Below the pieces are notes generated by a model. The model saw only the letters and a program-made list of their open reading frames with translations. It searched no databases and was not told the origin of the DNA. Positions 2,191-63,339 of a stretch of 64,000 nucleotides of DNA are shown here, in pieces. The translations under genes and the position numbers were made by a program. Source of the DNA: Mobula hypostoma (taxonomy: Eukaryota); the NCBI RefSeq assembly GCF_963921235.1, contig NC_086108.1, positions 58,344,001-58,408,000 of the forward strand. Reading direction: 5' to 3'. How positions within the stretch are numbered: the first letter of the stretch is position 1; each line of letters opens with the position of its first letter.

Positions 2191-2305
2191 GTTTTATATG
2201 CTTACCTTGTTTTTATCATTCCAGTTCTATGGGGAATGCAGATATCAAAGCAGATGTTTTTACCTGGGTTGGTTTATTGAATTTGAGTGTTCTCCACTGA
2301 TGCAG

Positions 2306-2509
2306 GTGACAAGAGATTATGATGAAGAGGAGCAAGGATATGACAGTGAAAAAGAAAAAAAGGAAGAACAGCGAGTTTCAGAATCTGGGACATCCCCAAA
2401 GCTGAAAGAGTTAGCACAAGAAACTGACAAGGGAAGTACAGATATAGTGAAAGAGTCAAAAGTCAATGGTGATGATCATCATGAAGAAGATATGGACATG
2501 AGTGAATAA
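2306..2509 (+). CDS. SRSF11: SRSF11 terminal coding exon
   Basis: tgcag|GTG. VTRDYDEEEQGYDSEKEKKEE...KESKVNGDDHHEEDMDMSE*, the characteristic SRSF11 C-terminus. Confidence 0.96.
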   Translation: MTRDYDEEEQGYDSEKEKKEEQRVSESGTSPKLKELAQETDKGSTDIVKESKVNGDDHHEEDMDMSE

Positions 2510-7766: not shown

Positions 7767-7905
7767 TACACAAAATTCTGCAGATGCTGCCACCCAGAGT
7801 TACACAAAATTCTGGAGCAACTCAGCAGGTCAAATTCTATGGAAAGGAATAAGCAGTCAACATTTTGGGCTAAGACTCATCAGGACTGGAAAGAAAGGAA
7901 GATGC
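7767..7905 (-). mobile_element. Penelope-like terminal fragment with decayed hammerhead motif (7854-7888)
   Basis: Reverse complement reads CAGTC-CTGATGA-GTCTTAGCCC-AAAAT-GTT-GACTG; flanks match the 3' end of the Penelope element at 38700-38847. Confidence 0.75.
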
Positions 7906-20418: not shown

Positions 20419-20640
20419 AACACAAGATTCTGCAGATAATGGAAATCTACAGCAATACACACACAAAATGCTGAAGGAACTCAGTAAATCAGGCAGCATC
20501 TATGGAGGGGAATAAACAATTGACATTTTAGGCCAAGACTCTTCATTGGGACTGGAAAAGAAAGGAGCAGACTCCATAGATGCTGCCTGACCTGAGTTTC
20601 TCCACCATTTTGTGTATGTTGCTCAGAATTTTGCAGCAGT
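20419..20640. mobile_element. Hairpin mini-element made of two inverted Penelope termini
   Basis: Arms 20461-20507 and 20572-20615 are imperfect reverse complements; the loop holds a decayed hammerhead (20517-20554, minus). Confidence 0.75.
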
Positions 20641-21219
20641 CCATTCAGCCTGACAAATTTCAGGTTTTGTTTAATATCTTACACAAGCCTCCTTACTCTG
20701 AATAAATTAATCTATTTAATTCATCATAAATAAAAAGTGGAACAAGTTTCATGGCAACATGTCAGCAAGTAGAACAACAGTTATGTATAACATTTCAAGG
20801 ATGCACCGTCACTTAGCAAAAAAAACTACAGGAGGGACAGTCAACATGTACTAATGAAGAGTCTTAAACACAGACACTGATCATTTCTCTGCCTGACCTG
20901 CGTTCCTTCAGCAGATTGTTTTTCTTTGCTCCAGATTGCAGCATCTACAATCACTTGTGTCTGTACTATTTACCTAGCTGTTTGGCAAAATAAAGATGCA
21001 CCATTGGGCTGTATTTCTCTGACAGAATGGTGTTGATAAACCTTAAATTTCCTTGATATTCTATCATGTGTAAATATTTGTTATATTTACACCATCTCAA
21101 TGGCAGAAAGTCAAGGAAATTCAGAAACATCCATCATAAGAACTCAAATACTCTAGATCTTTTCAAAAAACATAGCTAGCCCTCTATATTTTTATATTTT
21201 GGCAGATGGAACTTGTCAT

Positions 21220-24619: not shown

Positions 24620-26048
24620 CAGACATCCCACCCTGCAAAAACTCATTTCAGAGAGGTAGCACCCCTGCCACCACATATCCCCTCCCCCCCAGGTCAGTTG
24701 ACCTCCAAGAGTGTATGTAATACTTTGTTTAGTGATTTTGTCTAATCTGTAAACCAAGTTGGGTACATGCAGAAAATGTGACATTAAAATATGTACTTAT
24801 ATTATACATTATCATGTTTATTCTATTACAACTTTAAGCAAGTCTACAGGGAGTTTGGTCTCATCACGTAGGTCATCAATAGTGTAGCTCCTTAGCAGCC
24901 AGCCAGCTAGTTTAAATAACGTTAGCTTATGCTAATGAACAAATGACACCTGTTAAACTCACCTCAACATGTCTTTTACAGTCTTAACCCATCACAGGCA
25001 ATAGAAAAGTCACTGTTGCAAACAGTGCAGCGAGCAACATTGTCATTATTTGTGAGGTCGACCGTAAAGTCCGTCCACAGAGAAAACTGATAGGTCTGCT
25101 TAGCAGGGGTCCCCAACCTTTTTTGCACCGCAGACTGGTTTAATATTGACAATATTCTTGCGGACCGGCTGACGGGGGTGGGGGGGGGGGTGTTAATCCC
25201 CACCGGAATATAGATGGTAAGTCAACTATAAGTCATTTATAGGTGGCTAATACACTCAATTTCATTTCTAAAGGGGTTTATCTAACGGATTTAATATTAG
25301 ACACACAGCATCTATCTTCCTCACATGAATATAGTGATAAGTCAATAGCATCATAACATTTTAAGTAACGTTTGGATATTAAACACACAGCGCATATTTT
25401 CCTCGTATGAACATATAAAATCATTGCAACACACCAATATCACTGAATCAGTGGGAGCCCTGGGCTTAATTCCCTGCAACAAGACGGTCCCATTGAGGGG
25501 TGATGGGAGACAGCGATACTCAAAGGGGGTTCCTTATGTCCAGTCTATTTCGCAATTTAGTTTTTGTTGCATTCCTTGTTGAAAACCCCACTTCGCAGAG
25601 ATATGATGTTGGAAATGGAAGCAACGTTTTCAATGCTTCCGTGGCTATCTCAGGATATTCAGCCTTTACTTTGATCCGGAATACCAGTAGAGATGTTACG
25701 TCAAACATACTTTTCAGCCTGTCACTTGCAAGCTCGAGGAGTTGATCTTCTTCCCGCGCTGACATGGATGACGCGTGGGTAATGACCTCGCGTGTGTTCA
25801 AGTTCAACAGTGCATGACAGAGAATGAGGAAAGGTGCAGCTGACTCATATTGTTTCATATCGCCAAATCATATTGTTTCCTCAGTTGGGGACCACTCTTA
25901 GCACGAAGAGAGACCAAGCAGAATGCTCGCTCTCCCTCTCAAAAAAAAAAATCAATTTCTGAGATATTGTATATAATTTCCGGGTGTCAGGGTGCCACTA
26001 TCAATATGCGGGAGACTCCCGGAACTTCCGGGAGAGGTGGGATGTCTG
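24620..26048 (-). mobile_element. Second copy of the 6-bp-TSD hAT-like element (TSD CATTGT), hosting a nested Charlie-type element
   Basis: Same TIRs as 15042-15670; CATTGT at 24614-24619 and 26049-26054. Minus-strand remnant ARCTVCNSDFSIA resembles a BED-finger start. Confidence 0.85.
25104..25896 (-). mobile_element. hAT Charlie/Buster-type non-autonomous element with transposase C-terminal fragment
   Basis: Ends CAGGGGTCCCCAAC / GTTGGGGACCACT with CTTAG on both sides. ORF 25520-25858 EYPEIATEALKTLLPFPTSYLCEVGFS..KTKLRNRLD is a hAT dimerisation-domain motif. Confidence 0.87.
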
Positions 26049-26236
26049 CATTGTTGAGAAGTGAAATGCATTTTTCCAGGATTCTAAAGTTGCTTTGGAA
26101 AATAGTGGCAGAAACCTGATTTGTTAAAACAATGTGAATACACAAGTAAGTTTAGTGACTGCCCCAGATCACCACTGCTTGAAATCTTTGCTTCTCCATG
26201 GCTACATGGAATATTCAGTGTCAGAAGGAAAAATAC

Positions 26237-26726
26237 TATGGACTGATGAACATTCAGGTCTTTAGAAATGCTTTTGTAGCCTTTTCCAGCTTCATGCATC
26301 TTTACAATTCCTTTTCTAAAGTTCTCTGAAAGTTGTTTTGATCGAGGCATGGGGCACATAAACAGATCTTTCTTGATAAGAGCAGGCCCTGTCAGTAACT
26401 TGACTGTGTCTTTTTTTAAAAATATAGGGCAGGGTACCTCTACAACCCACATCTTCAATCTCATCTCATTGACTGGAACACCTGATGCCAAATAGCTTTT
26501 GTAGAAGGCATCATCCCAGAGGTTCACATACTTTTTTGAACCTAGACTGATTGTTTAAATGATGTACTCAGTATTGACGAGAAGTACAATTGTTTGTGTG
26601 TTATTAGCTTAGGCAGATTGCGTTTGTCTATTATCGTGAATAGATGAAGATCAAACCACATTCTATGAGTAATTAATGCAGAAAACAGGTAATTGTAAGA
26701 GGCTCTCAAACTTTCTTGCAACTGTA
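26237..26726 (-). mobile_element. Tc1 transposon 5' fragment
   Basis: TA-CAGTTGCAAGAAAGTTTG terminus on the minus strand; MPRSKQLSENFRKGIVKMHEAGKGYKSISKDLNVHQS is a Tc1 transposase N-terminal HTH. Confidence 0.85.
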
Positions 26727-30230: not shown

Positions 30231-31099
30231 GAGCAAGGTGACTTGTCCATTTTGTGTAACTAAACTATTTATCACTATCTCCACCAATTTTCAACCCATC
30301 CTGAATCTCAATTAAATCTTACTTTGTTGAAATAATTCATGTAGTATTGGTCTTGCCCTCTGCCATTAATACTTATTTACTTTTCAGTTTTTGATCAGCT
30401 CCAGTTATCCTCTTACAACCATTTTCCTGTTCATGTAGAGAATTCCCACAAACATCAGGCTCCTTGGTTCCCAAGTTTAGAGATTTTAATATTTGTTCTC
30501 AAAATTAACTAAAGGCATGCTGACATTGCTGCTAATGCAAGATTTTAATGCCCAGTACAATTTGTGGCAGATACAGGTGAGCTATCCTTTTGAATTAGAA
30601 ACTCAAGGGTCATTGTCCTAAAATGTCAAATCTACTTCTCACTCCATAAATATGCCTGAGCCACAAAGTATTAACATAATTTTCTATTATTTCAGATTTC
30701 CAGCACCACAGTATCATTTAAGTTTTAACATGACTCCTGTTAATGACTAAAGATTTACTGCATAGTTGTTTTGAACCATTTTAAATACTTTTCCACTCAA
30801 AAGTTTCGCCACAGACTTCCATTCAAAGTCAGTTGAAATTGGCTCACAGATGAACATTTACTCTTTGATAAATGATCTGCAGATGTTCTTTATTTCCTCT
30901 GCCATATGTTGACCTTGGACACTTTAGCACCAACATAAATATTAAGCTATTTAGAATTCAAATATTATTCTATTAAATTTTAGCTTCATTAGACCTACCA
31001 ATAAGTTCTTTCTTAAACAAAACTCAATTTACAATCAAATCACCAAATGAGCAACAATTTTTAAGCATAAAGGAAAGAAACATCAAATCAATTTGCTGA

Positions 31100-31280
31100 G
31101 ACACAAGAGATTCTGTAGATGCTAGAAATCCAGAGTAACACACACAAAATGCTGGAGGAACTTAGCAGGTCAGGTAGCATCTAAGGACGGAAATAAACAA
31201 TTGACATTTCGGGCTGAGACCCAACTATTTCTGTCCATAAATGCTGCCTGAGTTGCTGAGTTCCTCCAGTGTTTTGCATA
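31100..31280. mobile_element. Second hairpin mini-element of inverted Penelope termini
   Basis: Arms 31143-31194 and 31226-31276 are imperfect reverse complements; the loop holds the 3' half of the hammerhead (minus: GGGTCTCAGCCC-GAAAT-GTC-AATTG). Confidence 0.75.
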
Positions 31281-35414: not shown

Positions 35415-35764
35415 CTGAAATAAAACCATAAGAAAGGAACTAGAATTATTGTTCACTCAATTAATCTGCTAAAGATAAAGTATGTTCATGTAGTATTAAG
35501 ATTCCAATTCTCTATGTGCACTGAAAAAGTAACTTATTTACAGCATAAATGAACAGCTAGTCATATTTGACAGCTGTACAAATTATTTAAAATTATTTCA
35601 TTTTCTGGACCCTGAGCTTCCAATTACTTATCATTAATTCACTACTCATTTCCACTCTGACCCTTCTTTCCATGGATTCTTGCACTATTACAATGAGGCT
35701 AAATACAAGTTTGAGGTACAATACCTCATCTTCAGTATAGGCACACTGCAGTTTCTGACTCAAT

Positions 35765-36206
35765 ACTAGGAGGGGTTATTGATAAGTTTGTGGCCTAAGG
35801 TAGGAGGAGTCAATTTTAGAAAACCTAGCACATTTTTCAACATAGTCCCCTCCAACATTTACACACTTAGTCCAGCGGTCGTGGAGCATACGGATCTTGG
35901 ACCTCCAGAAAGTGTCTACAGCAGGGGTGATTGATAAATTTGTGACCTAAGGCGGAAGGAGATGAGTCTCATAACATGCACATGCAGTTCAACTCTGAGT
36001 GATTATGCAGAAAGTTTGAAGTAATAACTCATCAGGGGTGATTGATAAGTTCGTGGCCGAAGGTAGAAGGAGATAAGTTATTAACTTCAAACTTCCTGCA
36101 TAATCACTCAAAGAGCTGAACTGCATGTGCATGTAAGAAGAGTTGTACAACTCACCTCCCTTCTGCCTTAGGCCACGAACTTATCAATCAACCCAACTTA
36201 TCAATC
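35765..36206. mobile_element. Mariner-like MITE with internally repeated TIR units
   Basis: Unit AGGGGTGATTGATAAGTTYGTGGCCTAAGGTAGAAGGAG at ~35771, ~35923 and ~36034, plus an inverted copy at ~36155-36194. Confidence 0.7.
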
Positions 36207-36618: not shown

Positions 36619-36828
36619 CTGAAAATGCATGTTAAAATCATAACTGTTAACTCTATATTTATCTGCCAAGCAACCCAGTTACACTGAAACACTTTGAAGT
36701 AATGGTTCTCAGGGGTAGCAGGGAAGAAAAAGGCTAGTCTTGACAATGATATCAAGATCTTAATGACTACATAAAAAAGAACCATGACGAATCTTGTATT
36801 CTTAAGTGCACGTGCTTCATAGCACTGA

Positions 36829-38847
36829 TCCACAAACCTGCTTGTCCAGGAAGACCCACTGTTTCAGTTTGCTCCTGCCCCACTGAACTCACAGGCATAC
36901 CTTGACTCTGTTTTATCCCCCCAGTTCAGTCCCTTCCCACCAACATCCATAACACCTCACATGCTCTTGATCTTTTCAAGGATTTAAAGTTCCCTGGCCT
37001 CCATCTTATTTGTATCATGGATGTCCAGTCCCTATACACCTCCATCCCCCACCAGGAAGGCCTCAAGACTCTCCATCTTTTTCTGGACACCAGACTTAAC
37101 CACTTCCTCTCCCCCATCACTCTCCTCTGCCTAGCGGAACATCCTTGCTCCAAATAATTTATTCTTTGGCTCCTCCCACTTCCTTCAAACAAAAGGGGTA
37201 GCCATGGGCACTCACATGGGTCTCAGCTATGCCTGCCTGGTTGTCGGCTACATGGAACAGTCTATGTTCCAAACCTACACTGCTGAATGACCCACACTTT
37301 TCCTACGCTACATCGACAACTGCATTGGTGCTGCTTCCTATACCCATGCTGAACTAGTCGATTTCATCCACTTTGCCTCCAGCTTCCACTGTGCCCTCAA
37401 ACTCACCTGGTCCATTTCTAATACCTCCCTTCACTTTCTCAATCTCACTGTCTCTATCTCCAGAGACAGCTTATCCACTTATGTCTATTAGAAACCCATG
37501 GACTCAGCTACCTGGACCATACCTCATTCCACCCTGCTACTTGTAAAAACTTCATCCCCTTCTCTCAATCCCTCCGTCTCCGCTGCATCGGCTCTCAGGA
37601 TTAGGCTTTTCATTCTAGAATGAAGGAGATGTCCTCCTTTTTCAAAGAAAGGTGCTTCCCTTCCTCCACCATCAACGCTGCCCTCAACTGCATCTCTTAC
37701 ATTTCACACATTCATAGCACTGTCTAATGTCCACAAGATTGACAAACCCGCTTGTCCAGGTAGACCCACTGTTTCATCTTGTTCCTGCCTCACTGAAGTC
37801 ACATCAGCATACATCCATTTCCATTGTTACCCACCCTCCCGCCACTCTACCAGAGATAGGGTTCCTCTTGTCCTCACCTACCACCCCATCAGTCTCCTTG
37901 GCCAGCATATAATTCTTCAAAACTTTAGTCACCTCCAACAGGATCTCACTATCAAGCATATCTTTCCCTCCCCCCCACCACTTTTTGCTTTCCACAGGGA
38001 TCACTCCCTACACGACTCCCTTGTTCATTCGTCCCTCCCCACCATCTCCCTCCTGACACTTATCCTTGCAAGCAGAACAAGTGCTACACATGTCCCTACA
38101 CCACCTCCCTCACTACCATTCAGGGCCCTAAACAGTCCTTCCAGGTGAGGCGACACTTCACCTGCAAGTCTGTTGGGGTCATTTACTGTATTTGGTGCTC
38201 CCGGTGTGGCCTCTGTATATCGGTGAGACCCGACGTAGACTGGGAGACGGCTTTGCCGAGCATCTACGCTCAGCCTGCCAGAAAAAGCGGGATCTCCCAG
38301 TGGCCACCCATTTTAATTCCACTTCCCATTCTGATATGTCCATCCATGGCCGCCTCCACTGTCATAATGAGGCCACACTTAGGTTGGAGGAGCAACACCT
38401 TATATTCCATTGGGGAGCCTCCAAATTGATGGCATGAACATCGATTTCTCAAACTTCCAGTAATGACCCCCCCACTCACCATTTCCCATCTCCCTTTCCC
38501 TCTCTCACCTTATCTCCTTGCCCACCCTTTGCCTCCCTCTGGTGCTCCTTAGCGTTTCCCCACAACTTTTCTTTCTTCTATGGTCTTCCATCTCTTTCAC
38601 CAAGACTTCCCAGCTCTTTGCTTCATCCCTTCCCCTCCAAGTCTCATCTATCACAGTGTTTCTCTCTCCCCTCCCCCCACCTTTAAAATCTACTCCTCAG
38701 CATTTTTTCTCCAGTTCTGCCAAAGGGTTTTGGCCCGAAACGTTGACTGTTCTTTTTTCCCCATAGATGCTGCCTAACCTGCTGAGTTCCTCCAGCATTG
38801 TGTGTGTTTGCTCAGATTTCCAGCATCTGCAGATTTTCCCTTGTTTG
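36829..38847 (+). mobile_element. Penelope-like retroelement (RT + GIY-YIG endonuclease), decayed, with a terminal hammerhead remnant
   Basis: MDVQSLYTSIP (~37018), GVAMGTHMG (~37195), LRYIDN (~37303), FTCKSVGVIYCIWCSRCG..YIGETRRRLGDGFAEH (~38150-38265); hammerhead-like motif at 38712-38749. Confidence 0.9.
38712..38749 (+). ncRNA. Decayed minimal type I hammerhead ribozyme motif
   Basis: CAGTT-CTGCCAA-A-GGGTTTTGGCCC-GAAAC-GTT-GACTG: stems I and II and GAAAC are retained, the CUGANGA box is mutated. Confidence 0.65.
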
Positions 38848-38897
38848 TAATGCTTATACCATTTTTATTAAGAAATTAGGACACATGACAAACATAC

Positions 38898-38964
38898 CTG
38901 ATGTTTATACCCTGTTTGTAAATTTTACAAGCATCTGAAGGCAGAATTCTGGAGAGTAAAGGCA
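38898..38964 (-). CDS. ANKRD13C: ANKRD13C coding exon
   Basis: tatag|TG ... AG|gtatgt. (V)PLLSRILPSDACKIYKQGINIR. Confidence 0.95.
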
Positions 38965-39310: not shown

Positions 39311-41749
39311 GGCTACGTCCAAACTAGACCGGATAATTTTGAAAACACCGGTTTCGAGTAAAAACAACAGGCGTCCACACCAAGCGTTTTTCAAAATATC
39401 TCTGTCCATATTAGAACAGATATTTGGGCGAATTTCCTCCTACTGGGCATGCACAGAACACACAGAAAACAAGCAAAGAGGAAACAGTATACTTGGAGCG
39501 CGTTTGTCCAGTTACAGACTAGAAAAACTGTAAAGGAATTGCTGTTGGCTCTCGTGCAGGAGGACTTAAAACTAAAAAACAACAAATACTGGACTGTATG
39601 GAGGCAACCGACACGGCCAGTATGACCCGGCTGACGACGGACATTAAAAAACTGACTTACTCTGTTGCATTAATAAAGCACCTTGTTAAATGTATAAAAC
39701 ATGTCTGCATTATACCTTATGTATTTGGTTTCAATTCTGAAAATTTTTCGATCTTAATCAATTTGGGCTAGCAATTCCTATTTTAGGCAACATATTCTTT
39801 CCCCCCCCTCTTCTACGGACCGTGCCTTTCAAATTTGGAAGGCCAATGGTATATCACGGTTTTTGGATTTATTTTTAGATGGCTCCTTTATGTCTTTTGA
39901 ACAATTATCTAACAAATGTAACTTACCAAGAATACATTTTTTTTTAGATATCTCCAAGTTAGAAATTTCCTAAGTACCATACTTTCTTCTTTTCTGGCAT
40001 TACCCCCTACATATATTTTAGATACTGTAATTAACCTTAACCCATCTCAGAAAGGTGTAATGGCTATTATTTATAATACTATCATGAAACTTAGGAAAGC
40101 TCCATTCGATAAGATTAGGTCAGATTGGAAAAAGGAATTGGGCTTCACTATTTTGGCAGATGATTGGGCGCATATTTTACAACTAGTCAATACTTCCTCT
40201 ATCTGTTCCAAACATTCCCTAATTCAATTTAAAGTTGTTCATAGAGCACATACGTCTAAAGATAAATTAGCTCGTTTTTATTCTCATATTAACCCTCTTT
40301 GTGACAGATGTCATGGGGAGATAGCTTCCTTAACTCATATGTTTTGGTCCTGTCCTACTTTGAAAACTTTTCGGAAAGACATTTTTAATATTATCTCAAA
40401 GGTATTGAATACAGATATTTCTCCCCATCCTATTACTGCTATCTTTGGATTACCTAAAACTTCCAGTATTTTTTCCTCTTCAGCCTGTAGAATGATTGCA
40501 TTTCTTACTTTAAAGGCAAAAAGATGTATTTTACAACACTGGAAGGAGATTAATGCCCCAACTACGTTTTTTTGGTTTTCTCAGACGATACTATGTTTAA
40601 ATTTGGAAAAAATCAGAAGTAATCTTTATGATACTTCAGTTAAATTTGAACAGACCTGGAGATCTTTTATTCAACATTTTCATTTAATGTAACTTTTTTT
40701 TCTCTTTGACCATATTTACATTCCTTTCTTGGTTTTTAACTGTTTTTAATGGAGGTTGGGTTTGAGGATGTGATTGTTTTAAGTTGTTTAAGTCTACTTG
40801 ATACCTAGTTAGCCCATTGCTTTGCTTTGCTTTTTAGATTAGTTGCACGGTGGGGTTTTTTTTGGGGTCTTTTTTTGGGTTTTTTCTTCTCTTTATTGAT
40901 ATATATGGAAAATTAGTATACTATTATATTACCTCGTTATTTTATAACTAAACTGCACTGTTTGTACTACTGTTTTTGTGTATTAATATCTCTTGTAAAT
41001 TTATATCACAACAGTGTACTAGTTTCTACGTTTTAACTTTTGTGTACTAATTCAATAAAAAGATTTAAAAAGAAAAGAAAGGAAGAAAGAAAACATGTCT
41101 GCATCAGTGTTATCTTGTATTTCCATACAACGTTACATTAGGCTGTTACACAGCTATTGTCAGAGAAGTACTAGCATAAATAGGTAATCTACCTTCATAC
41201 GAGCAAGGACAGAAAACAGGGCAAAGTGAGTATACTTATTTATTCAGTAAGCTATGGGTCAAAGTATTTGGTGAGTACATTTATAACTCTTCTGGCTTCA
41301 GTCTCGTTGCCGTCCGTTCTGAAATTGTTAGGTTGTGTGGAGGGTTGCGTTCAAGAAAACAATGAAATGCCGCGCTGCCGCCATCTGTTCCAGCACGTCA
41401 TGACAGCGTATTTAAATAGTCAAAAAAGCTCACTTTACAATTTAACTCTCACGCCCTTCACACCAACTGCGCGTTATAACAGCCGTCCGACAGTGCTTGC
41501 GCAGTACCAAGCAGAAGCAGAAAAAGCATTGTTGTTGTGGTGTTGACATGACAGCGTTTCAAAATATCTCAGTTTACCCCATCCACACTACAACGCGCAA
41601 CAATCATTTTCAACTTTATACACTCTGGAGAGTGTTTTAGGAAAGCTCCGTTTTTGGGGGATGAAAATGCCGTTTCAATGTGGACGGAGGGTCAAAACAA
41701 AGAGAAAAATCTTTGTTTTCAAAATTATTCGGCATAGCGGGATGTGGCC
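39311..41749. mobile_element. PIF/Harbinger-type non-autonomous element (TAA TSD) split by an L1 insertion
   Basis: TAA|GGCTACGTCCAAACTA...ATAATTTTGAAAAC at the left; GTTTTCAAAATTAT...TAGCGGGATGTGGCC|TAA at the right. Confidence 0.8.
39711..41089 (+). mobile_element. 5'-truncated L1, same family as the full-length copy; 15-bp TSD AAAACATGTCTGCAT
   Basis: ORF 40060-40692 closely matches the C-terminus of ORF2 53068-56844 (CDRC..HMFWSC). AATAAA plus (AAAG)n tail; TSD at 39696-39710 and 41090-41104. Confidence 0.95.
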
Positions 41750-48487: not shown

Positions 48488-48590
48488 AAACAGAAAATAC
48501 TGCAGCATTCATCTGGTCTAACAGCATCTGTGGAAAGAGAAACAGTTGATAGTTCAGGTTCAAGACCCTTCATCATACCTGGGAGAAGTT
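48488..48590 (-). mobile_element. Old Penelope-like terminus with a heavily decayed hammerhead motif
   Basis: Minus strand 48543-48581: CAGGT-ATGATGA-A-GGGTCTTGAACCT-GAACT-ATC-AACTG. Confidence 0.5.
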
Positions 48591-53067: not shown

Positions 53068-56000
53068 TTACATTAAATGAAAATATCGAATAAAAGGTCC
53101 CCAAATCTGTTCAAATTTAAATGAAGAATCATAAAGATTACTTCTAATTTTCTCCAGATTCAAACATAAAATCGTCTGAGAAAACCAAAAAAAGGTAGTT
53201 GGAGCATTAAGCTCTTTCCAATGTTGCAAAATACATCTTTTTGCCATTAAAGTAAGAAATGCAATCATTCTACGGGCTGAAGGGGAAAGATTACTAGAAA
53301 TTTTAGGTAGTCCAAAGATAGCAGTAATAGGGTGAGGAGAGATATCTATATTTAATACCTTAGAAATAATATTGAAAATATCTCTCCAAAAAGTTTCCAA
53401 AGTAGGGCAAGACCAAAACATATGAGTTAAAGAGGCTATCTGCCCCGAACATCTATCACAGAAAGGATTAATATGCGAGTAAAAACACGCTAACTTATCT
53501 TTGGACATATGTGCTCTATGAACCACTTTAAATTGAATTAGGGAATGTTTAACACAAATAGAGGAAGTATTAACTAATTGTAAAATCTGCCCCCAATCAT
53601 CCACAGAAATGGTAAGTCCCAATTCCTGTTCCCAATCTACCCTAATCTTATCAAATGGAGCTTTCCTAAGTTTCATAATAATATTATAAATCATAGCCGA
53701 TGCACCTTTCTGACATGGATTAAGGTTAATTATCGAATCTAAAATATATATAGGAGGAAGCATTGGAAAGGAAGAAAGTATAGTACTTAGGAAATTTCTA
53801 ACTTGTAAATATCTAAAAAAATGTATTCTTGATAAGTTATATTTATTAGATAATTGTTCAAAAGACATAAGGGAACCATCTAAAAATAAATCCAAAAACC
53901 GTAAAATACCCTTAGTCTTCCAAGTTTGAAAAGCGCGATCCGTAAAAGAGGGAGGAAAAAATATGTTACCTAAAATAGGAATCGCTAACCCGAATTGATT
54001 AAGATCAAAAAATTTTCTGAATTGAAACCAAATACGCAAAGCATATTTAACGATCGGGTTAGAGACCTGCTTAAGGCGTTTCGAATCAAAAGGAAGAGAT
54101 GAACCTAAAATAGAACCAAGTGTATAACCCTGAACAGATTGTAATTCCAATGCTACCCATTTAGGAATAGATAGTATGTCCCGGTCAAGTAACCAAAATT
54201 TCATATGTCGAATATTAATAGCCCAATAATAAAATCTAAAGTTAGGTAATGCTAAACCTCCATCTCTCTTAGCTTTCTGTAAATGTATTTTACCCAGTCT
54301 CGGATTCTTATTCTGCCAAATAAATGAAGAAATTTTAGAGTCGACTTTATCAAAAAAAGATTTAGGAACGAAAATTGGTAATGCCTGAAACACATATAAA
54401 AATTTTGGCAAAAAAAACATCTTAACTGCATTAATACGACCAATCAAAGTTAAATATAAGGGAAACCATTTAGATGAAAGTTGAGTGATATGGTCTATTA
54501 ATGGTAAAAAGTTAGTCTTAAATAAATCTTTATGTTTACAAGTAATTTTAATCCCAAGATATGAAAGGTAATTATTAATCAATTTAAATGGAAATTTATA
54601 ATATAAGGGAAGATGTTTATTAATCGGAAAAAGTTCACTCTTACTAAGATTTAATTTATAACCTGAGAAAAGACCAAATTGTGCTAATAACTCTAAAACA
54701 GCAGGAATAGATCTCTCAGGATTAGAAATATATAAAAGTAAATCATCAGCATAGAGTGATAATTTATGGGACTTTAATCCCCGAGTTATCCCAGTAATAT
54801 TTGAAGATTCTCGAATAGCAATTGCAAGAGGTTCTAATGCAATATCAAATAATAGGGGACTAAGAGGACAGCCTTGTCGAGTACCACGAAAGAGAGGAAA
54901 AAAAGGTGAGTTTAAAGAGTTAGTACGAACCGAGGCTACAGGGGAGTGATATAACAATTTAATCCAGGATATAAATTTCAAACTAAAATTAAACATTTCA
55001 AGCACCTTAAATAAATAAGGCCATTCTACTCTATCAAAAGCTTTCTCGGCATCTAAAGAAATAACACACTCAGGAACATTTTGTGAGGGAGTATAAACGA
55101 TATTTAACAATGTACGAATATTATAAAAAGAGTAACGACCTTTAATAAAACCCGTTTGGTCTTCCGAAATAATAGAAGGAAGTACTTTTTCTAGTCTATT
55201 TGCTAATAACTTAGAAAAAACTTTAGAATCAACATTTAATAAAGATATTGGTCTATAAGATGCACATTGAGCAGGGTCTTTATCCTTCTTTAGTATTAAA
55301 GAAATTGATGCTCTATTAAAAGATTCCGGAAGTTTACCAAGTTTCAAAGAAGCCTCAAAAACCTTATAGAGCCATGGAATCAATAAAGAAGCAAAACATT
55401 TATAAAATTCAACGGTAAACCCATCAGGGCCAGGAGCTTTCCCCAGATTCATAGAAAAAATAACATTCTTAATCTCATCCATTGTAATGGAAGTATCTAA
55501 TAAAGAAGACATATCCTGTGAAATCTGAGGGAAGTCTAACTTATCTAAAAAATCATTCATATATTTAGAATCTCGAGGAGACTCTGATTGATATAAAGAA
55601 GAATAAAAATCACAAAAGGTTTGATTAATCCCCACATGATCCAATATCAATCGATCATTTTGGTTATAAATCTGATTGATTTGAGATTTAACATAATTAG
55701 ATTTCAATTGATTAGCCAGCAGCTTGCCAATTTTATCACTGTGAACATAAAAATCACTTCTTGTTTTCTTTAATTGGTTTACAATCGAGGACGAGAGTAG
55801 TAAACTGTGTTCCATTTGAAGTTCAGTTCTTTGTTTGTATAGCTCCTCAGAAGGAGCCATAACATATTTCTTATCAATTTCTTTAATCTTGTCCACAATT
55901 GCCATCTCCTCCTGCTTCTGTTTCTTCCTCAAAGCAATGGAATACGAAATAATCTGACCCCGAATATAGGCTTTAAAAGTGTCCCAAAGAGTGTTAACCG

Positions 56001-56844
56001 AAATATCTTCTGTATGGTTAATTGTAAAAAAAAGCTCAATCTGTTCATTCATAAAATTAACAAAGTCCGAGTCCTGAAGCAACAGCGAATTAAAACGCCA
56101 TTGTCTATTGTTTGGTATATTGGCCATAATTTTAATAGAAAGCTTAAGTGGAGCATGATCCGAAATGGTTATAGAATCATAATCACATTTAATCACTGAA
56201 GGAATAAGACGAGAATCAATAAAAAAATAATCAATTCTTGAATAGGAATGATGAACATGTGAAAAAAAGGAAAAATCTTTTTCCTGAAGATGCAGAAAAC
56301 GCCAAATGTCCGTCGACCCAGAATCAGAAAGGAAAGAATTAATCAAATTTGCAGATTTATTAGGTAAAGTCCGTAAAGGAGCCGAACGGTCCAAAGCTGG
56401 AGATAAACAGGTATTAAGATCTCCGCCCCAAATCAATGAAAACTCGTTCAAATTCGGAAACTGATCAAACAATGATTTATAAAATTCCGGACAATCCATA
56501 TTAGGAGCATAAACATTAACCAAAACTACTTTTTTATTAAATAGTAAACCACTAACCAATAAAAATCTACCATTCGGATCAGAGATAATATCCTGTTGTA
56601 TAAAAGTAACTGAGGAATCTATAAAAATAGAGACGCCTCGAATCTTAGCATTGGAGTTCGAATGAAATTGTTGTCCCTTCCAGAATTTGAAAAAACGTAG
56701 TCTGTCCCCCCTCCGTACATGGGTCTCTTGTAAAAATAAAATTTGTGCTTTAAGTCTCCGGAACACTTTAAAAACTTTTTTTCTTTTAATAGGATGATTA
56801 AGACCATTAGTATTCCAGGAGACAAAATTAATAATAGACTCCAT
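53068..56844 (-). CDS. L1 ORF2p: APE endonuclease, reverse transcriptase, CCHC zinc knuckle (1258 aa from the first ATG)
   Basis: SWNTNGL, LQETH, GGDLN, YSRIDYFF, SDH; APGPDGF, SLDAEKAFDRVEW, GTRQGCPLSPLLF, YADD; CDRC-x8-H-x4-C. No internal stop. Confidence 0.96.
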   Translation of the reverse strand: MESIINFVSWNTNGLNHPIKRKKVFKVFRRLKAQILFLQETHVRRGDRLRFFKFWKGQQFHSNSNAKIRGVSIFIDSSVTFIQQDIISDPNGRFLLVSGLLFNKKVVLVNVYAPNMDCPEFYKSLFDQFPNLNEFSLIWGGDLNTCLSPALDRSAPLRTLPNKSANLINSFLSDSGSTDIWRFLHLQEKDFSFFSHVHHSYSRIDYFFIDSRLIPSVIKCDYDSITISDHAPLKLSIKIMANIPNNRQWRFNSLLLQDSDFVNFMNEQIELFFTINHTEDISVNTLWDTFKAYIRGQIISYSIALRKKQKQEEMAIVDKIKEIDKKYVMAPSEELYKQRTELQMEHSLLLSSSIVNQLKKTRSDFYVHSDKIGKLLANQLKSNYVKSQINQIYNQNDRLILDHVGINQTFCDFYSSLYQSESPRDSKYMNDFLDKLDFPQISQDMSSLLDTSITMDEIKNVIFSMNLGKAPGPDGFTVEFYKCFASLLIPWLYKVFEASLKLGKLPESFNRASISLILKKDKDPAQCASYRPISLLNVDSKVFSKLLANRLEKVLPSIISEDQTGFIKGRYSFYNIRTLLNIVYTPSQNVPECVISLDAEKAFDRVEWPYLFKVLEMFNFSLKFISWIKLLYHSPVASVRTNSLNSPFFPLFRGTRQGCPLSPLLFDIALEPLAIAIRESSNITGITRGLKSHKLSLYADDLLLYISNPERSIPAVLELLAQFGLFSGYKLNLSKSELFPINKHLPLYYKFPFKLINNYLSYLGIKITCKHKDLFKTNFLPLIDHITQLSSKWFPLYLTLIGRINAVKMFFLPKFLYVFQALPIFVPKSFFDKVDSKISSFIWQNKNPRLGKIHLQKAKRDGGLALPNFRFYYWAINIRHMKFWLLDRDILSIPKWVALELQSVQGYTLGSILGSSLPFDSKRLKQVSNPIVKYALRIWFQFRKFFDLNQFGLAIPILGNIFFPPSFTDRAFQTWKTKGILRFLDLFLDGSLMSFEQLSNKYNLSRIHFFRYLQVRNFLSTILSSFPMLPPIYILDSIINLNPCQKGASAMIYNIIMKLRKAPFDKIRVDWEQELGLTISVDDWGQILQLVNTSSICVKHSLIQFKVVHRAHMSKDKLACFYSHINPFCDRCSGQIASLTHMFWSCPTLETFWRDIFNIISKVLNIDISPHPITAIFGLPKISSNLSPSARRMIAFLTLMAKRCILQHWKELNAPTTFFWFSQTILCLNLEKIRSNLYDSSFKFEQIWGPFIRYFHLM

Positions 56845-57567
56845 AAATCCTAAAGTCAACCCACAACAAGGAGGATTGACAATAGGCGCGACCCACAAAC
56901 CCGGAGAGGAAACAGAACATACAAAAGATACCGGGGAAAAGGACGCAACCAGTACTTCAATAATGTATATAGCCCAAAGAAAAACAAACTAAAACGTGAA
57001 GCCCCTCCCACCCCCCCCCACCCCAAGACCCCAAGGCAAAATCTAAAGCAGACCCGCCAGAAAGAAGCAAGCACTAAAACTACCCCCATGACTTCCGGTA
57101 TACGCTCCCTAAAAAAAAGGTATAAATATGAAAAGGATCAGCTAATTGTAAAACAGTAAAAAAATAAGTAAAAAAAAAGTTAGCTCAATTAGAATACACA
57201 CAGAACAGAACAAAAGCCGGAAAATATATATTAAAAAAAACCACAATAAACCTCAAACTCATGAATAGACACAGCAACAAAAAAAAATAGGATTATTAAC
57301 ATAAAGTGATTATAAAAAGCAAAACAGAACAAAATTTTAAAAAAAACTACAAAATTTAAGGCCGCACAGGAAATACGTAAGATGACAAAAGGGAAGTAAC
57401 CACCCAGAATCCCCTGGGAAAAGAAAGAAATGACGCAGTTAAAAAAAAAGTTTAGCAGCCATATTAAGAAATCAAAAGTAAACTTTTCTGCCCAAATAGG
57501 GCACAGAAAAGTTAAAACCAACCAATTCACAGCCTCCGATCAACGGAGAAAATTAAAAAAAAGGCAA

Positions 57568-58467
57568 TTAAGATGTTGAAGATGAAAGTTGATCCAGATA
57601 ACTCTGGGCATCCGATGGAGAATCAAAAAAACGAAGGGCTCCATCTAACATGCGAATCCTTAGACGTGCAGGGTACAGCAGCGCTGGTCTTAAATCCATC
57701 TTATAGAATTCCGACATCATGGATCTGTAACGGACCCGTTGGTCCCAGATTGGTTTACTGAAATCTTCCACGAATCGGAACTTAAGATCCGAAAAATCAA
57801 TGAAACCTTTAGATCGAGCGAATCGAAACAGTCTCTCCTTGTCTTGAAAGTAATGAAAACGTAAGATAACATGCCTAGGTCTATCTGACCTAGACGAGTA
57901 TGATGGGATTCTGTGAACACGATCCAGTAGCGGTGGTTGGTCAGGAAATACAGTAGGGAATGCATCTTTTAAAAGTTGAGAGAAATATTTCATGGGGTTG
58001 TTAGCTTCAACGGCTTCCCTCACGCCAATCATTCGTAAATTCTGCCGTCGCATTCTAGATTCCAAGTCAGAGTTTTTAAAAGTCAAAAAGTCAAGTTTCT
58101 TCTTCATTACATTAATTGTTTCTTCGATTTTCCCCATCTTAAGCTCACTTTGTTGCGCGAATTTTTGAAGATCAGATATAGCCGACTGATGTTCCGCAAT
58201 ACATGTTTGCATCTTATCAATTAAATCGGCAATTTTCTGGAAATTAGTTGAGATTTCCGTATGAATCAGGTCTTTAACAAAGCCTGCAATTTCCGTACGA
58301 ATCATCTCCCTAACAGAGGTTGAAATTTCCCTCTGAATTAACTCCGATATCGCTTTCAAAGTCACCGGTGATTCAGTCGGAGGGAGATCCGTAGCTTTCG
58401 GTTTAACCGGAGGTTTACCATCCTTGCCGTTTTTCCCGTTCTTAGACATAGCAGATCTAAGTATCAT
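57568..58467 (-). CDS. L1 ORF1p RNA-binding protein (coiled coil, RRM, CTD), 299 aa
   Basis: Heptad-rich N-terminal half, DLESRMRRQNLRMIGVRE, DRVHR..PRHVILRF, LLYPARLRI. Confidence 0.93.
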   Translation of the reverse strand: MILRSAMSKNGKNGKDGKPPVKPKATDLPPTESPVTLKAISELIQREISTSVREMIRTEIAGFVKDLIHTEISTNFQKIADLIDKMQTCIAEHQSAISDLQKFAQQSELKMGKIEETINVMKKKLDFLTFKNSDLESRMRRQNLRMIGVREAVEANNPMKYFSQLLKDAFPTVFPDQPPLLDRVHRIPSYSSRSDRPRHVILRFHYFQDKERLFRFARSKGFIDFSDLKFRFVEDFSKPIWDQRVRYRSMMSEFYKMDLRPALLYPARLRIRMLDGALRFFDSPSDAQSYLDQLSSSTS

Positions 58468-58828
58468 CCAATTGTCAGAGAATTCAGTTTAATTCAAAGT
58501 ATTGTAAAAATTGATGCCTTAATGGTTAATTAAAGTATAGCTGACCATAGAGAAAAAAAAACTCAGAGGTAATGGAGCGAGTCAAGAACGCGACTTCACT
58601 CCATGAGCGCTACCGGAAGTCTCGAAACCTTTTCAACTGTGTTTTAAAAAAAAAGGACACTGCTGCTAAATAGGGCAGCATGCCTCTGAATAGAATTCAT
58701 AAACTGGCCATGTTAGCTAGAATATATTCTTACTGGGGTTGATGAGGTAAAATTACAACCAGTGTCAAGAACAGGCACATACTTATTCCAAAGTTGGACG
58801 ATCCAATTATGTGTCAAAAAAATTGAGC

Positions 58829-60109: not shown

Positions 60110-60475
60110 CAGCAGTCCGCAACCACTGGGCCACGGATCGGTACCGGGCCGCAAAGCATGTGCTACCAGCCGCGAGGAAACGATATGATTTGGTGATATG
60201 AGTCAGCTGCACCTTTCCTCATTCCCTGTCATGCACTGTTGAGCTTGAACACGCGAGGTCATTAAGCACGCGTCATCCATGTCAGCGCAGGAAGATCAAC
60301 TCCTCGAGCTTGCAAATGACGACGGGCTGAAAAGTAAGTTTGACATAACATCTCTGCCAGCATTCTGGATCAAAGTCAAGGCAAAATATCTTGAGTTAGC
60401 CACGAAAGCACTGAAAACACTGCTTCCATTTCCAACATATCTCTGCAATGAATGCAACGAAAACTAAATCGCGGA
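60110..60475 (+). mobile_element. Truncated hAT Charlie/Buster-type element, same family as 25104-25896
   Basis: ORF 60279-60467 EDQLLELANDDGLKSKFDITSLPAFWIKVKAKYLELATKALKTLLPFPTYLC. Confidence 0.85.
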
Positions 60476-60684
60476 AGTTTCCAAATCAACAGTTAGGCTT
60501 CCATTTAATCTCAAAGGTTTTACCACATTTCTAGCCACTGTCATTTATAATATCTAAATGAACAAACATCCCACAAGTAAAAATATCTGACATTCTTAAC
60601 AAGAGCAATAATGTAAAATTAGCCTCACTTACAGCATTAAAATCGTCTCGCCAACATAAACATTTCAAAATTTCCATAACTTAC

Positions 60685-61269: not shown

Positions 61270-62896
61270 CACAGTTATACACAAAAATGAAAGAGGAACT
61301 CAGCAGGTCAGGCAGCAACTATGGAGGGAAACGAACAGTCTCCTCACCATCAAGGACATCTTCAAAAGGCAGCATCGATCATGAAGGACACTCACCATCC
61401 AAGCCGTGCCCTATTCTCATTGCTACCATCAGAGAGGGGGGTAATTTATAGAAATTTTTATGTATTGCATTGTAATGCTGCCACCAAACAACAAATTTCG
61501 TGACATTATGTCAGTGATAATAAACCTGATTTTTATTTTGACAGGAAATAGTTGAGTCCAGGTGAGAGGGGAAAAGGTAGGTAGGCGGCGTAGGGGGCAA
61601 TGAAATGGAATGATGTGAGAAACTTGGCTATAGGTCAAAGAAGCAAAAAGCTGAAGAAGGAGGAATCTCAGAGAGGACCGTAGATCATGGAATAAAGGGT
61701 AGGGGGTAGGGAACCAGAGGAAGTGATGGCCAGGTCGTGAAGGCAAGAGAGGGGAAGAAAACAGGTGAGAGTGCCACTGGGATGAGAAAAAAAAAAGGAC
61801 AAAAGAGGGATGGGGTTACTGAAAGTTATAGAAATCTATTTTCTGTCGTCAGGTTGTAGGCTACCAAATAGAATGAGTGGTTGCTTCTCCAATCTGTGTC
61901 TGGCCCCATCATGGGAGTAGAGGAGATTGTGTATAGACATATATATCATAGACAGCAGTGGATTAAGTGAAGGTGTTTGATATGCAGCAGTCCCCAATCT
62001 GAGTCGAGTCTCACTGATGTAGAGGCCACCACACCAGATGCAATAGATGACCCCAAATCGCATGTAAAGCACCGCTTCACCTGGAAGGATTATTTTGGGC
62101 TATGAATAATGCTGAGAGAGGTGGTGTAGAGGCAGATGCAGCACTTAGCAAAGTTGCAGTGAAGAGGGACATCAGTGAGGAGGGATGAGAAGATAAGGGA
62201 GTTGCAGAGAAAGCCATCCCTTCAGAAAGCAGAGGTGAGGGGAGTAGAAGGGAAAGATTTGTGTGGTGCTGGAATCTCTTTGGGGGGTGGGGTGGGGGAG
62301 GATCATTGTCAAAAGTTTTGCTGTCTGCCACAATTTCCAGGATCTTCCAGTAATTTGGACATGTCTGGCCAGGACCTCCTCTACTGCCATGAAATCAGAA
62401 GCAGGTTGAAGGAGCAACACTTTATGTTCCATTTTGGTAGTCTCCAAGTTGATGGCATGAACACTGATTTCTCCCACCCCACCTTTGTTTTCCCTCATCA
62501 AGGAGGTCATTGCATCCTTTCTCATCCTCCACCCTCACAACCTACCCATCACCCCTCTATGGTTCCCCACCCTCCTTCCCTTCACTACTGTCCTCTCCAA
62601 TTAGATATCTTCAGCTCTTTGCCTCTTCAACCCATCACCTTCTAGCTTCCCACATCATTCCCTTCCATCCCTTTCCCCCACCACCTACATTCCCTCCTCA
62701 TCTGAACTTGCCCATTTCTTGCAGTTTGTGTTCATTCCCCTACCTTTTTATTTTGGCTTCTGCTCCCTTCGCTTTCAATCCTGATGATGGGTCTCACCCT
62801 GAAATGTCAACTGTATGGATGCTGATGACCTGCTGAATTCTTCGAGCATTTTGTGGGTATTGCTCAAGAATTCCAGCATCTACAGAATCTCGTGTC
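61270..62896. mobile_element. Two divergently oriented Penelope-like 3' fragments, with a small Rex/Babar insert at ~61341-61540
   Basis: Minus arm with GIY-YIG remnant GVIYCIWCGGLYISETRLRLG; plus arm RSRLKEQHFMFHFGSLQVDGMNTDFS ending in the hammerhead-bearing terminus. Confidence 0.8.
62776..62813 (+). ncRNA. Minimal hammerhead ribozyme motif, best-preserved core in the window
   Basis: CAATC-CTGATGA-T-GGGTCTCACCCT-GAAAT-GTC-AACTG: CUGAUGA 62781-62787, GAAA 62801-62804, GUC 62806-62808. Stem I is weakened. Confidence 0.7.
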
Positions 62897-63339
62897 AGCA
62901 GCAACAGTCTGCTGTTCAGAGAATCTCAGAATCTGATTTGCCCAACATCTAAACTCAGCATTATTCAAAGACTGCAAGGCCTGATGTAAATTAATTTACA
63001 ATAGTGGGAGATAGAAGATGGAAATTTCCTTTGTGGCAGGCAAGTTTACTCAATGCATTAAAGCTTTATACTAGAATTGATCAAACTACACAAGTTAATG
63101 GTCCTATAATGTCAATTGCATAAAAAGCAACTTGGTTACAATGTTGTGGAGATTATATATCAACTGATTTTCTTCAACTATTTGTTTTTCTATAGCCCAA
63201 TATAAAGAATTTAACAGCTAATAACTATACAGAATGCCAAATTATCCATCTTTTGAACATTCACAGACAGAATGGGAGGGAGTAGTAATAATACATTATG
63301 TAGTAATCCAAACTCGCTTAAAAGGAAAAACATCCATAC

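Follow-up and report, generated by a model that had tools for sequence, protein, structure and literature searches.

Decayed minimal type I hammerhead motifs in the pseudo-LTR of a probably Neptune-type Penelope-like element of a ray genome

The 64,000-nucleotide stretch of Mobula hypostoma DNA analysed here (contig NC_086108.1; hereafter the window) carries isolated, 5'-truncated and CpG-decayed relics of the hammerhead of a Penelope-like element (PLE). The explanation that we favor, and hold as a whole to be highly probable, is that a PLE of a ray-like cartilaginous fish, highly amplified and probably of Neptune type, carries a minimal type I hammerhead in its pseudo-LTR, and that the copies seen in the window have decayed. 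Hammerheads of this kind have been known since 2014 from the pseudo-LTRs of metazoan PLEs, which include the Xena, Poseidon and Neptune elements of fishes as well as elements of coelacanth and Xenopus (Cervera and De la Peña, 2014, PMC4209133). The present case extends the association of minimal hammerheads with PLE pseudo-LTRs to a ray genome.

Hammerhead relics in the window

A first-pass annotation had listed six hammerhead-like stretches. All six are found at the positions and on the strands given there (Table 1) and can be aligned as one family, in which the 38-base hammerhead-like motif is part of one larger repeat. Five of the copies are linked model-free by pairwise blastn, for instance 20420-20539 with 31101-31220 (80%, E 1.6e-23) and 31103-31223 with 62895-62788 (74%, E 2.7e-14). 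The sixth, at 48543, has no blastn match within the window at E 1e-4; its family membership is given by profile and pairwise alignments, and its tail differs from the majority by 34%. A profile of the six copies (nhmmer), from which three weaker rows (E 1.9-3.5) were discarded, recovers five further fragments outside the model. The earlier list had missed these: two bear the hammerhead (20849 and 30605, both on the plus strand) and three consist only of the element's end (20573(+), 31227(+) and 61340(-)). Eight motif-bearing fragments per 64 kb amount to one per 8 kb. Same-strand copies are spaced 8-24 kb apart, none is complete and none has a tandem partner. The statement that no copy is fully intact is borne out by the six copies and by the strict hammerhead descriptor, which has no match in the 64-kb window. 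The copy at 62776 had also been said to possess the best core, and it is indeed the only one of the six without a core defect.

Contigs from four public sequencing runs (106,227, 92,412, 99,520 and 10,622 contigs, respectively) were aligned to positions 38300-38900 (601 bases). The hammerhead-bearing family is very abundant, the summed contig depth not being taken as copy number. The first-pass suggestion that this genome holds many such ribozymes stands as far as motif relics are concerned, which are many in a very abundant family, whereas none of the six listed copies is intact and self-cleavage of the family is putative. Fold-back contigs, in which 38723 is joined to 38761 on opposite strands with the main arm starting near A9, were seen in three of the runs (5, 1 and 3 contigs), and their layout matches that of the 31198/31227 insertion.

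Table 1. Features of the PLE family in the window
Feature	Position	Strand	Remarks
Longest PLE remnant	36828..38848	+	frameshifted RT, thumb, C-x4-C-x2-C linker, GIY-YIG, pseudo-LTR, hammerhead, long 3' end
Hammerhead relic	38712..38749	+	nine of nine stem pairs possible, stem III palindrome kept; core changes A6C, G8A
Hammerhead relic	7854..7888	-	G12A, 3-nt deletion at stem II base; fragment about 7939-7770
Hammerhead relic	20517..20554	-	U4C, G5A, G12A; arm 20575-20420
Inverted end-only arm paired with 20517 copy	20573-20631	+	begins about +13 to +15
Half hammerhead, from stem II on	31198..31222	-	arm 31225-31101
Inverted end-only arm paired with 31198 copy	31227-31276	+	short 3' end
Older hammerhead relic	48543..48581	-	C3A, A15.1C, one inserted base
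Strongly decayed hammerhead and end fragment	20849..20962	+	nhmmer E 9.7e-9, outside model
Half hammerhead and end fragment	30605..30718	+	nhmmer E 9e-4, outside model
PLE nuclease domain, C-terminal remnant, start of plus arm	62343..62474	+	tblastn with P0007 residues 404-448, E 8e-6
Pyrimidine-rich pseudo-LTR between ORF end and hammerhead	62475..62775	+	alignment
Decayed minimal hammerhead	62776..62813	+	predicted cut site between 62808 and 62809
Element 3' end behind hammerhead, long form	62814..62897	+	profile/alignment
Inverted 5'-truncated second arm: Cys linker, GIY-YIG remnant, pseudo-LTR	61542..62289	-	E 4e-14; stops about 86-87 nt before cut site
Foreign repeat fragment within inverted arm	61341..61540	+	matches 3 other window places, E 8e-8 or better; presumably a LINE-like 3' end
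End-only fragment, about 64 nt	61277..61340	-	from +1 of predicted cut site to short 3' end; one base of microhomology possible

The restored motif and the element that carries it

The reconstructed hammerhead passes the strict descriptor after C-G has been restored at four sites, but the plain majority of the six copies fails at the closing pair of stem I. At these four sites the copies show TG and CA, the decay products of CpG, and 25 of the 43 differences from the CpG-restored motif are of CpG type. The sites were chosen by hand; an automatic CpG rule was left unused, as it over-called core sites (U4-G5, N7-G8) from single copies. The consensus core CUGANGA/GAAA that had been claimed is kept by the majority of the copies, and its 3' half is also found in the public contigs. 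C3, U4, G5, A6, U7 and G8 are each present in four of the five covering copies and A9 in all five; in the 3' core, G12 is found in 4/6 copies, A15.1 in 5/6 and A13, A14 and U16.1 in 6/6. The family majority retains all 11 core bases together. Stem I, stem II, the G10.1-C11.1 pair and the extra base after A9 are present, complete only after CpG restoration. At 15.2-16.2, the stem III palindrome reads C-G in one of the six copies and TG in four, C-G being the likely ancestral state. Once restored, the motif agrees with the published minimal hammerhead consensus in every feature listed for it, including the extra base after A9, G10.1-C11.1 and the palindromic 15.2-16.2 (PMC4209133).

The public contigs cover the 3' half of the motif, the 5' half of the core, which falls outside the 40 of 152 rows listed, being documented by the window copies. 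Among the nine loose-end consensus rows listed, C15.2 and C17 are each found in eight and G1.1 and G12 in seven, and one row is intact throughout the 3' half. C2.1 represents ~90% of depth in all four runs. Position 16.2 is A, not G, in 8/9 of the listed loose-end rows, with CA at 15.2-16.2 in 7/9 and C-G in 1/9; these rows are biased, since they come from contigs failing to align to a reference that carries C-G at 15.2-16.2. The predominance of A16.2 is explained by CpG decay together with this bias against the reference, and a subfamily devoid of the stem III palindrome is possible.

The strict descriptor gives 14 matches per 214 Mb of order-2 Markov sequence, a background of about 1 in 4000 per 4-kb element. 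RNAalifold, applied to five copies, predicts a 5-bp stem I and a 4-bp stem II around an unpaired core, and 84% of cells pair in the proposed register vs 13-43% in slid registers, a control that favors a structure derived from the tested sequences themselves. Stem covariation, set beforehand as a test, does not rise above shuffles in the five decayed copies of this one family (449 of 500 shuffles as high), a sample in which it is not to be anticipated. None of seven stretches outperforms its shuffled versions in folding (z -0.5 to +0.9), and the bare core pattern is not enriched in the window (2 matches vs 0.39 expected; 6 of 100 shuffles as high). A Rfam scan of the window at E 5 returned four matches, none of them a hammerhead, and the viral contigs scanned contain no independent copy of the motif. 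Two motif matches in metagenome contigs were rejected as chance, there being no core upstream and a GC content of 54% and 61%. All in all, the first-pass identification of the family motif is supported: the element is a PLE with an endonuclease, and its pseudo-LTR contains a minimal type I hammerhead.

The motif is on the sense strand, in the pseudo-LTR behind the RT-EN ORF. In the longest remnant (36828-38848), about 250 nt of pyrimidine-rich pseudo-LTR separate it from the nuclease, whose GIY-YIG has a C-x2-C inside the motif and two His behind it; the Cys linker C-x4-C-x2-C is located at 38061-38095. The order RT then C-terminal GIY-YIG with CCHH was obtained by tblastn and alignment with proteins P0007, P0028 and P0029. 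P0028 and P0029 carry Pfam RVT_1 and GIY-YIG, P0029 has no matching solved structure, and the window's own short PLE pieces give no RT or GIY-YIG Pfam match. The RT piece has 33 relatives among 54 candidates; none of the 33 extends into the pseudo-LTR. The best five are Hypanus and Mobula proteins (70-74% identity), and the seven best are 65-74% identical, six of them being named as Hypanus, Mobula or Rhincodon proteins. Sharks and a skate follow (58-66%), then invertebrate and other proteins (42-45%). The Cys linker is incompatible with the Penelope/Poseidon clade and indicates Neptune or Nematis, which share it (Craig et al., 2021, PMC8557442), and the vertebrate host argues for Neptune rather than Nematis. 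Thus, the element is probably of Neptune type, the clade being read from the linker and the host. The Neptune clade (Arkhipova, 2006, in Craig et al., 2021, PMC8557442) shares with the ray element the RT followed by a C-terminal GIY-YIG with CCHH, a CX2-5CxxC linker, the 5' truncation, an inverted 5' arm and a tail on one end.

The motif had been placed at the element terminus; it is actually separated from the 3' end by about 63 or 104 nt. Contig loose ends at 38807 and 38848, 41 nt apart, fall 63 and 104 nt behind the cut site, the one at 38807 partly reflecting a difference in the reference. The window holds three inverted pairs, with a long and a short end in two of them and an intermediate one in the third. 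One long and one short end per insertion fits the known PLE 'tail'. Two copies had also been described as sitting at the 3' end of GIY-YIG-encoding Penelope sequence. This is correct for 38712, whereas the plus arm of 62776 contains only the C-terminus of the nuclease and GIY-YIG is found in the inverted arm. In the latter, the foreign ~200-nt repeat occupies the place of the 5' part of the hammerhead.

Several other features of the PLE sequences were observed. A duplicate of about 110 nt of the element's own RT N-terminal region (36828-36900) is inserted in the thumb region at 37725-37835(+), and 35617-35751(+) is another remnant of a PLE nuclease C-terminus, with no detectable hammerhead. 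Pyrimidine-tract-plus-AG signals flank the hammerhead, as at 62760-62778(+) and 38700-38714(+), one of them ending inside stem I; a second one follows the cut site at a distance of about 12-24 nt and immediately precedes an ATG, from which a frame runs to the element end. The two signals and the ATG are candidate splice acceptors and a candidate ORF start. Ray gene models absorb the repeat: PLE ORF pieces bear host gene names in Mobula and Hypanus (P0002, P0005), and an antisense end fragment is part of an ALPK2 isoform (P0034 residues about 1419-1465). An opposite-strand protein search across the motif matched one of 156 candidates. This is a Hemitrygon ALPK2 isoform in which a decayed copy has been exonised, too little for a test of the core.

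Function of the motif and possible traces of cleavage

In an active ancestor, 250-300 nt would have separated the motif from the nuclease stop upstream, and 63 or 104 nt from the two alternative 3' ends downstream, which is the layout observed. The fragments and the work on the anole element PAc (Frangieh et al., 2024, PMC11167929) suggest that reverse transcription would start behind the motif and usually stop early; nearly every insertion, however short, would then carry the motif or part of it. By analogy with published relatives, two motifs of a tandem transcript may pair via the ACGU palindrome into stem III and cut after GUC, and cutting may be slow or helped by the element's protein. 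Minimal PLE hammerheads are reported to have no activity as monomers and low activity as dimers (PMC4209133), and dimers were also studied by Lünse et al. (cited through the review PMC6765202). One of nine Xenopus dimers is active (Li, Clavereau and Pollet, 2026, bioRxiv 2026.07.22.740005). In PAc, cutting is protein-assisted and dispensable for insertion, and two 3' ends from two RT start sites explain the PLE tail (PMC11167929).

Such results leave room for another reading, which we consider rather unlikely and which is partly compatible with the favored explanation, from which it differs on the function of the ancestor. The hammerhead-descended motif would be kept at the junction of pseudo-LTR and ORF as a signal for protein binding, splicing or translation, elements with a dead core still spreading. 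Core mutants of the anole PLE did not affect insertion in vitro, and no RNA-seq ends were detected at the anole cut site (PMC11167929); the eight other Xenopus dimer elements are uncut (bioRxiv 2026.07.22.740005). In four of five window copies, the 5' strand of stem I is formed by a pyrimidine tract ending in CAG, which resembles the intron end at helix I of the D. virilis Penelope (PMC4209133). The frequency of A16.2 in the listed loose-end rows and copy 38712, with perfect stems yet A6C, point in the same direction. It should, however, be noted that a binding or splice signal would have no need for all 11 core bases, which the family majority retains simultaneously. Moreover, no splice into stem I occurs among the 15 contig joints listed of 645.

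It is very unlikely that the short copies form a separate non-autonomous retrozyme or SINE family spreading as RNA circles. Six of the eight hammerhead-bearing fragments are without coding sequence, and one cartilaginous fish is reported to carry retrozymes (Li, Clavereau and Pollet, 2026, bioRxiv 10.64898/2026.07.22.740005). However, the 5' ends of the copies are scattered (about -72, -55, -20, -21, -33, -74, +1, +10 and +15), the window shows no fixed unit and no head-to-tail array, and two copies combine this same end sequence with RT/EN remnants. Non-LTR retrozymes, as described in that preprint, share with the ray family the derivation from a PLE pseudo-LTR and the type I hammerhead, but they are defined by two or more tandem units each with a complete hammerhead, none of which is present in the window.

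Copy 62776 raises the question of a preserved working ribozyme, perhaps host-used, that would cut with a partner in trans, a highly improbable case. It has all 11 invariant core bases and C17, and is the sole copy of the six with a whole core. However, stem I keeps 3/5 pairs, the closing pair 2.1-1.1 and the pair 2.3-1.3 being broken, stem II keeps 3/4, its basal pair being G-U, and a U at 15.2 abolishes the palindrome of stem III. The stem III self-duplex is computed at -0.3 kcal/mol vs -3.1 kcal/mol for the restored motif, and the hammerhead fold at +3.3 kcal/mol vs -5.0 kcal/mol for an alternative hairpin, with stem pair probabilities <=0.03. Seven of its 38 bases are off the restored motif, the same number as in 38712, its mirror case with whole stems and a core altered at A6 and G8. 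In addition, 62776 lies on the strand opposite the host gene, its nearest same-strand copy is 24 kb away, and one intact core in six at this decay rate would need no selection; the core was presumably retained by luck. Copy 62776 is predicted neither to fold as a hammerhead nor to cut. It is a poor substrate for a cleavage assay and has no special standing.

A likeness due to chance and generous reconstruction is hardly credible: the failure of the plain majority in the descriptor, the restoration of four CpG sites, the lack of covariation and the non-enriched bare core pattern would allow it, but C-G, or the pair of decay products, is found at each restored site in copies or public contigs, the descriptor background is as low as stated above, and the place and strand of the motif are those predicted for PLEs.

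If the motif is, as we favor, the hammerhead of a once active PLE, traces of cleavage might be preserved. Fragment 61340-61277, one of the three end-only fragments of the window, starts exactly at the predicted cut site (+1), which is a weak hint of cutting in vivo. Of the other two, 31227 starts at +1 only with an assumed 4-nt deletion and a CpG change, and 20573 has 3 nt of microhomology and begins at +13 to +15. The 61340 junction lies next to the foreign repeat, and its simplest interpretation is the edge of a deletion. The cut site is the centre of a 6-bp palindrome and stem I forms an inverted match of its own, so that fold-back junctions at this place are not countable as evidence of cutting. 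No pile-up of 5' ends at the cut site is visible among the contig rows listed (24 of 2839), a type of data unable to reveal such ends; the loose ends at 38761-4 continue as family sequence through the cut site. It is conceivable, though doubtful, that the ribozyme of the ray element cuts in the germ line and that the cut RNA is copied into DNA as distinct insertions of ~63 nt, running from +1 to the short RT start like 61340-61277. If true, ray genomes, where relics number in the order of 100,000 per gigabase, would preserve a fossil record of in vivo cleavage by PLE hammerheads, which RNA-seq did not reveal for the anole element, and the choice between spliced and unspliced RNA, made at a splice acceptor in the 5' strand of stem I, could act as a switch for the ribozyme. 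Given its copy number, the family lends itself to a statistical treatment of two questions of PLE biology: do insertions start at the cut site, and is the core retained in successful subfamilies?

Known relatives and the host locus

The ray motif shares with the published minimal hammerheads (PMC4209133) the type I topology, CUGANGA with an extra base, G10.1-C11.1, a 5-bp stem I, GAAA directly followed by the palindromic C-G-U and C17, a U-rich upstream flank, and an occurrence as thousands of dispersed single copies from truncated elements. Its 4-bp stem II is at the short end of the published range, and the alignment of 56 motifs from 40 species in Fig. S3 of that work includes no shark or ray. 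The eight relics per 64 kb of the window seem far above the 4,000-9,000 copies of coelacanth and Xenopus, but the published counts refer to intact motifs (PMC4209133). PAc, a Poseidon element of Anolis carolinensis, also has a hammerhead near the pseudo-LTR/ORF junction, and its two 3' ends are separated by some 30-40 nt (Frangieh et al., 2024, PMC11167929). However, it belongs to the Penelope/Poseidon clade without Cys linker, whereas the ray element has the linker, and its protein-assisted cutting was assayed, whereas the ray element is known here from its sequence. In the literature searched, including the accessible parts of PMC6155905 and bioRxiv 2025.06.08.657570 and extending to the 2026 preprint apart from its tables, no named shark or ray PLE hammerhead was found.

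A minus-strand exon at 36456-36863 matches Pfam ANKRD13_C (E 1.3e-10), and more minus-strand exons are found near 63.4, 60.7, 35.3 and 32.9 kb, which we take to belong to ANKRD13C. Exons of this ANKRD13-family gene extend from about 11300 to beyond 63475(-), with the last coding exon near 11.3 kb. Since minus-strand exons surround it, 62776 is located in an intron of this gene, in antisense orientation. The copies on the host strand, 20517, 31198 and 48543, are all without a working core. The last coding exon of another gene, tail to tail with the ANKRD13 gene and without Pfam match, is at 2192-2509(+); presumably, it is SRSF11-like.

The window also contains other mobile elements. A near-intact L1/Tx1-type LINE occupies 53068-58488(-), with an ORF1 of the Transposase_22 type and an open ORF2 of 1306 aa comprising endonuclease, RT and zf-RVT; a second LINE piece at 39721-41084 is 82% identical to it. 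The imperfect palindrome of about 270 bp at 35924-36194 is probably a MITE, and it produced an Rfam match to MIR5048 that was rejected as spurious. Finally, the intervals 26084-26554(-) and 25520-25867(-) comprise a Tc1/Sleeping Beauty-type transposase remnant (HTH_SB) and, adjoining it, a second DNA-transposon-like remnant, which is repeated at 60174-60476.
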